NCBI RefSeq assembly: GCF_000011325.1
Contig: NC_003450.3
Span: forward strand, 2,670,001 to 2,702,000
Direction: 5' to 3'
Source of the DNA: Corynebacterium glutamicum ATCC 13032
Lineage (GTDB): Bacteria > Actinomycetota > Actinomycetes > Mycobacteriales > Mycobacteriaceae
DNA: 32,000 nt
Shown here: positions 23,300 to 24,922 of the stretch, one piece after another
How the letters are laid out: each line of letters begins with the position of its first letter
Numbering within the stretch: the first letter of the stretch is position 1
Translations under genes and position numbers: made by a program
Notes under the pieces: generated by a model
Database searches by the model: none
Told to the model about the DNA's origin: nothing
The model's input: the letters and a program-made list of their open reading frames with translations, nothing else

Positions 23300-24922
23300 A
23301 TGAAACTTTTTCATAGGGCTGCAAGCGTCGTAGCCGCAGCGCTATTAGGTACAGGTGCTATTGCGCCTGTGGTTCAGAGTCAACCTGATCAGACAGTCAC
23401 CCTTGATCATCAAGAGGCCTACATCCAAGAATTTCACCGCGGGGGCGATAGACCACCTATAGTCGATGGTGTCGGTGGTTATTCAGATGAAGAAGTCGCA
23501 CAGATCCATGAAGCGATCCGACAAGCTTACGTTTCTGGTGAACCACACGATGAGCTAGTTCCTGGTGAGATGTGGTCAGACAAGATTGACCTGCCTGCAA
23601 CGATCGACAAGGCAGCTGCTGATGAAGCTGAGATAAAGATCGCGCAGCAACAATCAGGGTCGCAGGCCAGGGCTCTTGCTGCACAGTGCCAGTTTTTCTG
23701 GCCGTCTCCTTACCAAGTGTGTGGGGCCATCTTGGAACGGTATAACCAACAAGGTGGGCCGTTGAGTTGGATGCTATTGCCAATTGAGAATCAAGCGCTT
23801 AACCCTGATGGACAGGGATATCGTCAGCGATTTATGTCCGGATTTATTTATTGGCATCCCACTACTGGTGCGCATGCAGTTAATAACTACAGTGCGCAAA
23901 TATGGGAGCGTCATGGGTGGGAGTCTGGCTGGATGGGGTACCCCATCGGTGGTGAAGTCCCTGTTTCGGGGTCGAATCTCATTGACGGTGAGATCAATGG
24001 TTGGGTGCAAACGTTCCAAGGTGGGCGGGTCTATCGTACCCCGATGCTTGAGGGGTTCCAGATTGCCAGTATTAACGGCATGATTTTAAATAGATGGTTG
24101 GCTATTGGCGGGCCGGATAGCGCTCTTGGTTTTCCCATTGCCGATGAAGCTGTTGCATCCGATGGTGTGGGTCGATTTAGTGTTTTCCAGAATGGTGTAC
24201 TTTACTGGCACCCTAATCACGGAGCATGGGAAATGACCGGATTTATTGAAGAAGTATGGAAAATGCGAGGTGGCTTGGATTCTCAATGGGGTTATCCCAC
24301 ATCCGCCCCGGTGTTAGATTCAGATGCCCCAGTGGAAATTGCCCAAAACTTTTCTGGAGGCGTTTTCGACCTAGCAACCGAGATCGAGGATGCTGGTTTT
24401 AGTCCGATCGAGGATAAGGAGATGAGCAACTTGATACTTGAATATTTTGGTTATTTAGGATTCGATTTCCCTGGAAGCTCTTCTCGAGAGTTGGTGCAAG
24501 ACCATTCTAAATCAGACTTGATGACTCTTAGGGCTAGTAGATGTGCGCTCAAGGATTCTTCTCAGGCAAGTTTCGGTGGGGTGACGATTCCTAGCCACTA
24601 TGACTACTGGGGATGTCTTGACAAGTCCGACCGACCCGACCCTGATGCTTATGGGCGCCATGACTACTGCACTCTTTCGCCTGATTCGTATGGTCCCCTA
24701 GGGAAGAAGGCTGAGTTTAGTGGGGCTTGTGCAAGACACGATCTGTGTATGGATGCCGTTGATGCGAATGGCACGGGGTATGCTCCGTGCCACCCGGCTT
24801 TTTATACGTGGATGAGCACAGTTTGTACTACCAACTATGCTGAGGATGCTAATTTCAAGAAGGGCTGTGTGAATACCGCGAAGGCCTACTATAAGGCAGT
24901 CCAATTAAAGAACCCGAATTAG
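23300..24922 (+). CDS. Secreted protein: signal peptide + LGFP repeats + C-terminal prokaryotic phospholipase A2-like domain
   Basis: 540 aa. It has a Sec-type signal (MKLFHRAASVVAAALLGTGAIAPVVQS). About four LGFP-type repeats span aa 141-355 (GFIYWHPTTGAH, WMGYPIG, ALGFPIADE, GVLYWHPNHGAW, QWGYPTS). The C-terminal 85 aa carry CTLSPD, FSGACARHD, AFYTWMSTVCT and YYKAV, which align with the Streptomyces secreted PLA2 as I remember it. AAGGAA sits 9 nt upstream of the ATG. Confidence 0.85.
   Translation: MKLFHRAASVVAAALLGTGAIAPVVQSQPDQTVTLDHQEAYIQEFHRGGDRPPIVDGVGGYSDEEVAQIHEAIRQAYVSGEPHDELVPGEMWSDKIDLPATIDKAAADEAEIKIAQQQSGSQARALAAQCQFFWPSPYQVCGAILERYNQQGGPLSWMLLPIENQALNPDGQGYRQRFMSGFIYWHPTTGAHAVNNYSAQIWERHGWESGWMGYPIGGEVPVSGSNLIDGEINGWVQTFQGGRVYRTPMLEGFQIASINGMILNRWLAIGGPDSALGFPIADEAVASDGVGRFSVFQNGVLYWHPNHGAWEMTGFIEEVWKMRGGLDSQWGYPTSAPVLDSDAPVEIAQNFSGGVFDLATEIEDAGFSPIEDKEMSNLILEYFGYLGFDFPGSSSRELVQDHSKSDLMTLRASRCALKDSSQASFGGVTIPSHYDYWGCLDKSDRPDPDAYGRHDYCTLSPDSYGPLGKKAEFSGACARHDLCMDAVDANGTGYAPCHPAFYTWMSTVCTTNYAEDANFKKGCVNTAKAYYKAVQLKNPN

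Follow-up and report, generated by a model that had tools for sequence, protein, structure and literature searches.

The stretch of DNA analyzed here, called the window below, comprises 32,000 nucleotides (nt) of the Corynebacterium glutamicum ATCC 13032 chromosome (contig NC_003450.3, forward-strand positions 2,670,001 to 2,702,000). Between two insertion sequence (IS) elements of the IS1380 family, it carries a gene for a 540-amino-acid (540-aa) protein with an apparent signal peptide, a set of LGFP repeats, and a C-terminal head that is homologous to secreted phospholipase A2 (PLA2). This gene is followed after 4 nt by yga2C (the protein is named Yga2C in UniProt), which encodes a 118-aa protein with four predicted transmembrane (TM) segments. 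Coordinates of these and of the neighboring features are collected in Table 1. The two genes may form a plasmid-derived mobile toxin/immunity pair of a bacteriocin-like kind.

Anatomy of the 540-aa protein

The 540-aa product is read from an ATG-started open reading frame (ORF) and is 100% identical to the "putative secreted protein" of C. glutamicum MB001/ATCC 13032, which is present on 144 contigs. Its N terminus (MKLFHR-AASVVAAALLGTGAIAPVV-QSQ) contains a single hydrophobic segment at aa 7 to 25 and no RR (twin-arginine) motif, as expected for a Sec signal, and its homologs have an A-x-A-Q consensus at the predicted cleavage position. The N-region that follows is mostly helical and confidently folded in an AlphaFold2 (AF2) model (aa ~31 to 128, pLDDT of 88 to 98). 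Searches of aa 28 to 129 against Pfam, the PDB, and PHROG profiles returned no relative, while a motif in this region (PGxMWSDK..LP..DK..AD.AE) is kept in 95 homologs and in Rhodococcus proteins. The central part matches the LGFP model PF08310 with an E value of 2.6e-40 (137 bits versus a cut-off of 22), and four repeat cores lie at aa 152, 206, 270, and 324. It also matches the C-terminal domain of the C. glutamicum mycoloyltransferase A (PS1/MytA; 6SWZ), both in sequence (E = 2.6e-20) and in predicted structure (Foldseek TM-score of 0.86, root mean square deviation of 2.0 Å, 30% identity, E = 2e-16). A further match, to PHROG_2998 "endolysin" (aa 165 to 284, E = 4.7e-33), indicates that phage endolysins use the same wall-binding module, which fits the view that the LGFP region is a portable one. 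By analogy with PS1/MytA and with these endolysins, the 540-aa protein would be attached to the corynebacterial cell wall.

Downstream of the repeats, a capping element (helix and strand at aa 358 to 385, pLDDT of 87 to 98) leads into a linker with a pLDDT below 50 and then into the head. The AF2 model of the whole protein, made with 95 homologs, has a pLDDT of 89.6 and a pTM of 0.85. Cysteines stand at positions 130, 141, 415, 439, 457, 477, 483, 497, 509, and 523. Cys130 and Cys141, at the start of the LGFP module, are nearly invariant in homologs of this part of the protein, and the remaining eight all fall in the last 130 aa. A first-pass annotation, made by a model from the letters of the window, had described this ORF as a Sec signal peptide, an unrecognized region of about 110 aa, about four LGFP repeats, a linker, and a PLA2-like domain with eight cysteines in the last 130 aa, all within an IS-bounded cargo of low GC content. 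The ATG-started ORF, the signal, the region without a Pfam or PDB match, the four repeats, the disordered linker, and the cysteine count were all recovered in the present analysis, as was the setting of the gene (see below).

The C-terminal head is homologous to group XIII/XIV secreted PLA2

The first-pass annotation had aligned the C terminus block by block with the secreted PLA2 of Streptomyces violaceoruber (SvPLA2). All of the motif blocks that it quoted are present and can be aligned as described, and a phmmer search of PDB sequences retrieves SvPLA2 (1FAZ) at an E value of 3.5e-4 with the same block-by-block alignment. In the search that it suggested with the Pfam prokaryotic PLA2 model, the protein on its own scores below the cut-off of PF09056, and the PLA2 homology therefore needs a family profile. 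We collected 32 homologs that keep the C-x-x-H-D motif and aligned 26 of their heads (alignment A1). Among PDB sequences, the A1 profile matches only four, all of them microbial secreted PLA2s: 1FAZ (4.2e-9), Tuber borchii 4AUP (1.9e-7), 7YGK (6e-5), and 8K1W (1e-3). Taken individually, 22 of the 26 heads in A1 match PF09056 at an E value of ≤0.01, the best at 1.7e-10. A search of NCBIfam gave no match for either the 540-aa protein or Yga2C.

The AF2 model of aa 400 to 540 (pLDDT of 88.7, pTM of 0.82) has three long helices. Its top four Foldseek neighbors are the same microbial PLA2s, which are also its sole credible neighbors (probability of 0.93 to 1.0, TM-score of 0.41 to 0.55). The E values of these neighbors are weak. 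Based on the profile matches, the matches of single heads, and the structural neighbors, the homology of the C-terminal head to group XIII/XIV secreted PLA2 is well supported. Hydrolysis of phospholipids at the sn-2 position is the activity predicted from this relationship.

Table 1. Features of the IS-bounded region; positions are those of the 32,000-nt window
Feature	Position	Strand	Basis
Left IS1380-family element	21564..23226	+	Transposase ORF 21690-23057, NCBIfam transpos_IS1380 E = 2.9e-104
Shine-Dalgarno-like AAGGAA (putative function)	23287-23292	+	Direct sequence reading, 7 nt 5' of the ATG
ORF of the 540-aa protein	23300..24922	+	ATG start
Sec-type signal peptide, aa 1-27	23300..23380	+	Hydrophobic segment; cleavage predicted after VQS
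Scaffold N-region, aa 28-129	23381..23686	+	AF2 fold and conservation in homologs
Four LGFP repeats, aa 130-357	23687..24370	+	PF08310 match, PS1/MytA fold
Post-LGFP capping element, aa 358-393, and disordered linker, aa 394-412	24371..24535	+	AF2
PLA2 head, aa 413-540, HD-x-C subtype of prokaryotic/group XIV secreted PLA2	24536..24919	+	Profile, AF2/Foldseek, residues
Codons CACGAT of His480 (catalytic His) and Asp481 (adjacent Asp)	24737..24742	+	Alignment to SvPLA2 His64/Asp65
yga2C, 118-aa four-TM protein, candidate immunity/self-protection partner	24927..25283	+	TM prediction, linkage
IS630-family transposase remnant	25318..25767	-	NCBIfam transpos_IS630, 86.8 bits (cut-off 100)
Right IS1380-family element, IS1677-like	25686..27388	+	Transposase ORF 25813-27216, transpos_IS1380 E = 2.1e-109

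Active-site and cysteine positions of the head

In the group XIV enzymes SvPLA2 and T. borchii TbSP1, a catalytic His works with a distal Asp partner (Asp85 as the dyad partner of His64 in SvPLA2), the Asp next to this His has an important part in catalysis, and there are two conserved disulfides (PMC11525133). For comparison with these enzymes, 109 heads (32 from the homologs and 77 from genome loci) were aligned with SvPLA2 and TbSP1. His480 and Asp481, which correspond to SvPLA2 His64 and Asp65, are invariant in 109 of 109 heads. The same is true of Asp455, in the D-x-C motif Asp455-Tyr456-Cys457, which corresponds to Asp43, the Ca2+ ligand in the Ca2+ loop of SvPLA2. Cys457, Cys477, and Cys509 (SvPLA2 Cys45, Cys61, and Cys96) are likewise invariant in all 109, and Cys523, the fourth group XIV cysteine, is invariant in the 26 sequences of A1. 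Alignment with the cysteines of SvPLA2 and TbSP1 predicts that these four residues form the two group XIV disulfides.

The first-pass annotation had read His480-Asp481 as the catalytic dyad. The codons and the alignment with His64/Asp65 bear out the catalytic His, and the position of the dyad partner Asp85 is occupied by His498; the pair is therefore the catalytic His and its adjacent Asp rather than a dyad, with Asp481 presumably a Ca2+/catalysis residue. The canonical distal Asp is not present in the ATCC 13032 head, and the Asn, Asp, or His found at this position across the family can still hydrogen-bond.

At the positions of SvPLA2 Gly67 and Ile84, the head has Cys483 and Cys497 (Cys in 109 of 109 and 108 of 109 heads, respectively). 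This extra pair flanks both dyad positions and gives the motif H-D-x-C-[YM], which mirrors the C-C-x-x-H-D-x-C-Y signature (PROSITE PA2_HIS) and the C51-C98 disulfide of classical animal secreted PLA2 (sPLA2). There are also weak matches to PF06951 and to the bee-venom-type model PF05826 among the heads, the latter including the head studied here. Together, the motif and these matches suggest that the HD-x-C heads are a subtype between group XIV and classical sPLA2. In one subclade, a further pair, Cys415-Cys439, is present. The pattern G[AP]C[AS]xHD[MLI]C[YM] retrieves the subtype from Corynebacterium, Gordonia, Williamsia, Nocardia, Rhodococcus, Micromonospora, Actinomycetaceae, and Cutibacterium, and it is also found in a few metagenome-assembled genomes (MAGs) from outside the Actinomycetota.

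A conserved LGFP scaffold carries interchangeable heads

The signal peptide, N-region, and LGFP repeats together make up what we call the scaffold; 95 of 106 homologs share both the N-region and the repeats. After approximately aa 351, these 95 proteins diverge into at least 7 head clusters. PLA2 heads are found in 33 of them, a four-cysteine head ("head A") in 19, and a Peptidase_C92/YiiX-like head in 13, and the remainder fall into clusters of 6, 4, 4, and 2 plus singletons, one kind of which is DUF6973. The scaffolds of homologs P0027 and P0011 are 68.5% and 65.7% identical to that of the 540-aa protein, yet they carry other heads. P0009 has a scaffold that is 67% identical and a PLA2 head that is just 26% identical, and P0003 has a scaffold that is 63% and a head that is 62.5% identical. 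Such discordance between scaffold similarity and head type is a signature of modular exchange. The scaffold is a conserved carrier with diverse, recombining C-terminal heads, the arrangement by which polymorphic toxins are recognized.

Scaffold genes with unassigned heads were also found in 45 plasmid records; most of these come from Rhodococcus, Gordonia, and Nocardia, and Prescottella is represented as well. The same architecture as in the window, including the N-region motif, is found in Rhodococcus sp. 06-235-1A (locus L024), and 7 homologs carry precomputed matches to both PF08310 and PF09056. The first-pass annotation had called the LGFP-PLA2 fusion novel. This holds for the literature, where our searches for LGFP together with PLA2, polymorphic toxins, or immunity found no relevant paper; published work on the LGFP proteins of C. 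glutamicum treats PS1, Csp, Cg2069, and Psp2 as factors of the envelope. In the databases, the fusion turns out to be common, as the counts given above show.

DUF6330 (PF19855) was considered as a further head type and dropped, since its matches fall inside the LGFP repeats. Such matches are found in L099 to L104 and in P0014; in one protein, for example, the match at aa 360 to 388 lies within an LGFP repeat at aa 350 to 401. The model seems to be redundant with LGFP rather than to describe a separate domain.

Heads of other types have linked genes of their own. A C92-like head (L008) overlaps by 4 nt the gene for a 406-aa single-TM protein, and head A in L009 is followed by the gene for a 254-aa soluble protein. 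In C. glutamicum (L095), the gene next to head D encodes an acidic, soluble protein of 119 aa, and a Rhodococcus qingshengii plasmid (L103) has conserved counterparts of both this head and its partner. Scaffold genes on Rhodococcus plasmids mostly have a small co-directional hypothetical gene after them, and a small co-directional gene without a Pfam family comes next in most of the 7 plasmid loci inspected (L098 to L104). Apart from one DUF6226 protein, a Pfam search of the partner proteins, those of these other heads included, gave no match, and BLAST between the partners of two C92 heads detected no similarity. Different heads thus have different, tightly linked genes, in a sample that comprises few loci per head and in which covariation is confounded by descent.

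Membrane proteins encoded next to PLA2 heads

No terminator-like site was found on the plus strand between positions 23000 and 25800, and so there is none between the PLA2 gene and yga2C, which has a GC content of 0.417. Other PLA2 genes also have small membrane or lipoprotein genes beside them. In C. deserti (L002), the PLA2 gene is followed by a lipoprotein gene and then by a Yga2C homolog (35% identity). A gene for a 134-aa TM protein lies 2 nt downstream in C. renale, and an uncalled 145-aa TM ORF lies downstream of an ATCC 14067-type paralog of C. glutamicum. In C. epidermidicanis (L007), the PLA2 gene precedes a lipoprotein gene homologous to that of C. deserti. These lipoproteins of ~160 aa (L002 6687-7193 and L007 5645-6124) have an L-x-G-C-G-N lipobox and conserved Cys residues. 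They are candidates for a second class of partner, reminiscent of the Tli immunity lipoproteins.

In order to quantify the association, we surveyed 80 genome loci with the HD-x-C PLA2 subtype, counting as a partner an ORF of 90 to 200 aa with at least 3 TM segments directly downstream. Such an ORF is found directly 3' of 24 of 78 PLA2 ORFs and of only 2 of 589 control ORFs (Fisher P = 3e-22). When only greedily selected, non-overlapping gene-like ORFs are counted, the values are 20 of 61 for PLA2 and 3 of 361 for controls (P = 1e-15). The linkage is present across many actinobacterial genera, with or without LGFP.

Members of the Yga2C family themselves lie 3' of PLA2 genes in 7 further loci (C. 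deserti, L010, L016, L026, L031, L060, and L090). A word-indexed search with Yga2C retrieved only Yga2C itself, so an exhaustive HMMER search was needed, which gave 8 representatives among 1.84e9 proteins. With an iterated hidden Markov model (HMM), the family takes in the partners from the window, C. deserti, C. alimapuense, C. kroppenstedtii, Acidipropionibacterium thoenii, and two MAG loci. The remaining TM partners belong to at least 6 other families that are similar to Yga2C in size and topology; placing all of them in a single superfamily was considered and rejected, since the hhalign probabilities do not exceed 3%. Within the Yga2C family, A53, P85, I88, and G99 are invariant, and a P-[DE]-G-I-L loop connects TM3 and TM4. 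Both termini are basic, so that by the positive-inside rule this loop probably faces outward. We also compared head subtype with partner family: head identity is 64% within partner families and 39% between them (0 of 5,000 permutations), a difference that shared descent explains, and we do not claim specificity from it.

Some members of the family are found in other arrangements. In L090, a plasmid-like contig that also encodes a resolvase and a TrwC relaxase, only 4 nt separate the Yga2C gene from the end of an LGFP-PLA2 gene whose product has 542 aa. In L093, two tandem Yga2C-family genes (3001-3393 and 3646-4017) without a nearby PLA2 gene occupy a site between adh_short and RibD_C genes that is syntenic with the C. 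deserti LGFP-PLA2 cassette; they look like an orphan immunity array. One further orphan is found in L092. These two loci and the plasmids that keep only a short PLA2 stub (see below) have orphan-immunity-like copies, and orphan immunity or toxin-tip cassettes are among the features by which polymorphic toxins are recognized.

The cassette is plasmid-associated cargo captured in the chromosome

The IS pair encloses 2.46 kb that contain the PLA2 gene, yga2C, and an IS630-family remnant that is cut by the right IS. The GC content is 0.45 at positions 23761 to 23820, as the first-pass annotation had noted, 0.499 in the PLA2 ORF, and 0.485 in the cargo, compared with 0.539 in the window. The two IS1380-family copies are directly oriented and 80 to 91% identical, with terminal inverted repeats at 21566-21596 and 23196-23226 (left) and at 25684-25710 and 27363-27389 (right). 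The IS630 remnant spans only profile positions 203 to 298 of 299, the C-terminal third. The repeat at 25684-25710 lies inside this remnant, which indicates that the IS1677-like element inserted into an older IS. A composite transposon was considered for the IS-bounded unit. No matching target-site duplications were found at the IS ends and the copies are only 80 to 91% identical, so that movement as a single unit is not supported. The cassette sits between a D-glutamate-cyclase-like gene and a DUF1648 gene. Farther away, outside the IS-bounded cargo, a DsbA-like Thioredoxin_4 gene (17447-18241, minus strand), adjoined by a tRNA gene (17229-17301, minus strand; Rfam RF00005, 68 bits), precedes the gene of the disulfide-rich PLA2 by about 5 kb.

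Parts of the cassette recur on plasmids. Window positions 24840 to 27387, a segment that opens with the final 83 nt of the PLA2 gene and takes in yga2C as well as the IS630 remnant and all of the right IS, are 99.92% identical over 2,549 nt to plasmid pTET3 (L001 4001-6549), in which the counterpart of the right IS is annotated IS1677. In pTET3, an IS6-family element cuts the PLA2 gene to its last 26 codons and leaves yga2C intact. Positions 24840 to 25400 (from the PLA2 3' end across yga2C into the beginning of the IS630 remnant) are 100% identical in pGA2 and in a C. crudilactis plasmid, and pGA2, like pTET3, has an intact yga2C beside just the final 26 PLA2 codons. The 12.3-kb plasmid pCpho of C. 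phocae (L097) contains only mobF, parA, rep, one small hypothetical gene, an LGFP-PLA2 gene, and a gene for a 176-aa multi-TM protein, the LGFP-PLA2 and multi-TM genes lying at 2989-5155. Based on the plasmid identities, pCpho, and the IS flanks, we conclude that the PLA2/yga2C cassette is plasmid-associated cargo caught in the chromosome.

A possible toxin/immunity pair and its alternatives

The carriage of swappable heads by the scaffold and the pairing with yga2C lead us to read the PLA2 and yga2C genes as a plasmid-derived mobile bacteriocin-like toxin/immunity pair, a reading to which we give about an even chance. The 540-aa product would be exported by Sec and held on the arabinogalactan-peptidoglycan wall by its four LGFP repeats, and the disordered linker would present a disulfide-rich, Ca2+-type PLA2 head able to hydrolyze membrane glycerophospholipids. 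Yga2C, as a four-TM protein of the plasma membrane, would most likely shield the producer's own membrane from the PLA2 and so be the immunity protein. The scaffold would serve as a carrier for interchangeable C-terminal heads, which would make the pair one member of a polymorphic, plasmid-borne effector family, and the pair would be used against bacterial competitors; the most plausible targets are other mycolic-acid bacteria, since LGFP binds walls of their kind. The first-pass annotation had allowed for remodeling of the bacterium's own lipids as well as for an antibacterial or anti-eukaryotic lipase; the adjacent membrane-protein gene and the polymorphism of the heads favor the antibacterial lipase over self-remodeling.

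Several results weigh against a toxin/immunity pair. The PF09056 gathering threshold of 29.4 bits is not reached by the whole protein (21.3 bits) or by the isolated head (23.7 bits), and the Foldseek E values of the head are between 0.2 and 1. At the position of the dyad partner Asp85, the 109 heads have Asn in 53, Asp in 51, and His in 5, and at that of SvPLA2 Tyr68 they have Tyr in 89 and Met in 19. His498 and Met484 of the ATCC 13032 protein are thus minority states (5 of 109 and 19 of 109), and this copy could be weakened. About two-thirds of the PLA2 loci of the HD-x-C subtype have no TM partner. The hhalign comparison of the Yga2C family with ten other partner groups gave probabilities equal to those of reversed-sequence controls, and the heads linked to Yga2C are 37 to 52% identical to each other against a background of 38.6%, in a comparison where covariation is confounded by descent. 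A protective partner would be needed equally by a scavenging or remodeling enzyme. It is also conceptually difficult to see by which route a 57-kDa wall-binding protein would reach a target plasma membrane that lies behind a mycomembrane.

The enzyme might instead serve its producer, by remodeling its lipids or by freeing fatty acids from exogenous phospholipids, with Yga2C as a regulator, a docking site, or a means of self-protection. We consider this unlikely, while noting that it has precedents: LGFP is the tether of envelope enzymes, the mycoloyltransferase PS1/MytA among them, C. glutamicum LGFP proteins have been discussed as envelope-stabilizing factors (PMC12113857), and in TtaP a bacterial PLA2 that stays with the cell has a role other than that of a toxin (PMC11525133). 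Skin corynebacteria that depend on lipids, for example C. tuberculostearicum and C. kroppenstedtii, have relatives of the protein, and a membrane protector would be required here too. The gene is, however, accessory (IS-bounded, low in GC, and plasmid related), its scaffold swaps unrelated heads that each have a linked gene of their own, orphan copies of the partner persist without the enzyme, and a 12-kb plasmid has the pair as nearly its sole cargo. Head swapping, orphan partners, and plasmid cargo are what one expects of a conflict system rather than of a housekeeping function. The same head polymorphism with linked genes, together with a partner in the producer's membrane, points to bacterial membranes and makes it improbable that the protein is a surface lipase that harms or modulates the membranes of protists, fungi, or animals, as fungal and venom sPLA2s do. 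The group XIII/XIV PLA2s do include fungal host interaction factors, and many of the relatives come from animal-associated Corynebacterium and Actinomycetaceae, but C. glutamicum is a soil saprophyte and the LGFP tether would retain the enzyme on the bacterial wall.

That the ATCC 13032 copy is what remains of a mobile cassette in decay, or that the protein only binds lipid or wall, has a similarly low probability in our estimation. His498 in place of the dyad Asp/Asn, Met484 in place of the conserved Tyr, the Pfam score under the cut-off, and the position of the cassette among IS elements and an IS630 remnant would all agree with decay. Yet the reading frame is unbroken, its product is 100% identical on 144 contigs, and the other catalytic, Ca2+, and disulfide positions are all kept. 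His498 and Met484 are, moreover, common to a clade of relatives that are 58 to 69% identical overall, which suggests a maintained variant, and D99N mutants of classical sPLA2 keep activity. Finally, the combination of a lipolytic enzyme, an endolysin-type LGFP region, and a holin-like four-TM protein could be taken for a domesticated phage lysis module, which we regard as very improbable. The PHROG_2998 match would agree with it but is restricted to the LGFP part, and Yga2C matches a mycobacterial four-TM holin family very weakly (E = 0.33). Neither the head nor Yga2C had a match in tblastn searches of 50,697 phage genomes or in PHROGs, which is why we disfavor this origin; in addition, the enzyme bears its own Sec signal, and the contexts are plasmids and IS elements rather than prophages.

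More broadly, the scaffold as a whole may define a Sec-dependent polymorphic toxin family that extends across Corynebacterium, Rhodococcus, Gordonia, and Nocardia and is often plasmid-borne, in which LGFP targets or retains the toxin. Yga2C and the other small multi-TM partners would be the first PLA2 immunity proteins, and C. glutamicum ATCC 13032 would have an example that is open to experiment. This broader proposal is tentative, and we hold it at somewhat less than an even chance. Little is known of protein-mediated antagonism among mycolic-acid bacteria beyond ESX/type VII secretion (T7SS). Should the reading be correct, C. glutamicum ATCC 13032 would offer a genetically tractable two-gene system for studying how a wall-bound lipase attacks behind a mycomembrane, how a 118-aa membrane protein blocks a PLA2, and how effector heads are exchanged on LGFP scaffolds. 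The analysis also delineates, within an enzyme class that is relevant to industry, a microbial PLA2 subtype (HD-x-C) for which three to four disulfides are predicted, and it flags a possibly membrane-active secreted protein in production strains.

Comparison with known systems

A wall anchor and a toxin or enzyme head are each already known; what is newly noticed here is the membrane partner and the polymorphism of the heads. The closest relatives of the head are SvPLA2 (group XIV; 1FAZ/1LWB/1KP4; PF09056) and T. borchii TbSP1 (4AUP), with which it has in common the helical core, the D-x-C Ca2+ loop, the C-x-x-H-D motif, both conserved disulfide positions, and the C-terminal Y-Y-x-A-V helix. 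SvPLA2 is a free 122-aa enzyme, whereas the domain in the window forms the C-terminal end of an LGFP protein of 540 aa. The head also differs in its extra Cys pair at SvPLA2 positions G67 and I84, in having Asn, Asp, or His across the family at the distal dyad Asp, and in the loss of the Y-x-N motif after HD.

A domain of the 1kp4 fold, Tox-PLA2, has been listed among the heads of polymorphic toxins; its carriers have RHS, ALF, or filamentous repeats, and it was given no immunity protein (Zhang, Aravind et al. 2012, PMC3482391). Like the head described here, Tox-PLA2 forms the C-terminal tip of a carrier that is secreted by a Sec ("T2SS") route, and it contains D-x-C[ST] and C-x-x-H motifs (PMC3482391). 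The present system differs in its LGFP wall-binding carrier and in the linked Yga2C family of candidate membrane immunity proteins. Salmonella Typhi TtaP, a DUF1353 PLA2 from the typhoid toxin islet, is a distant group-XIV-like PLA2 that is also cell associated, but it has no signal peptide, disulfides, or anchor domain (PMC11525133), all three of which are predicted for the 540-aa protein. PS1/mycoloyltransferase A (6SWZ and 6SX4), from the same organism, has the same LGFP repeat fold. There, however, LGFP is C-terminal to an alpha/beta-hydrolase mycoloyltransferase, while in the 540-aa protein it lies in the middle, with the N-region before it and swappable heads after it.

Functional precedents for a lipase or membrane toxin gene beside a small extracytoplasmic or integral-membrane protector are the Tle/Tli phospholipase pairs of type VI secretion systems (T6SS), Staphylococcus aureus TslA/TilA, and the pore-forming colicins with their 3- or 4-TM immunity proteins. 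The lipoprotein partners in C. deserti and C. epidermidicanis and the multi-TM partners in other loci resemble these protectors in kind. The partner proteins have no sequence similarity to Tli, TilA, or colicin immunity proteins, export would be by Sec rather than by a T6SS or T7SS, and the protective role of Yga2C is a predicted one. There is also a parallel in layout with the class III bacteriocins or bacteriolysins lysostaphin and zoocin A, which cleave peptidoglycan and against which immunity is conferred by wall modification. Like the LGFP-PLA2 cassettes, they combine a Sec-secreted enzyme with a wall-targeting domain and are plasmid-borne with a linked immunity gene (in the cassettes, a candidate one), and pCpho has this same layout; the difference is that the enzyme here would be a phospholipase and its partner is a membrane protein.

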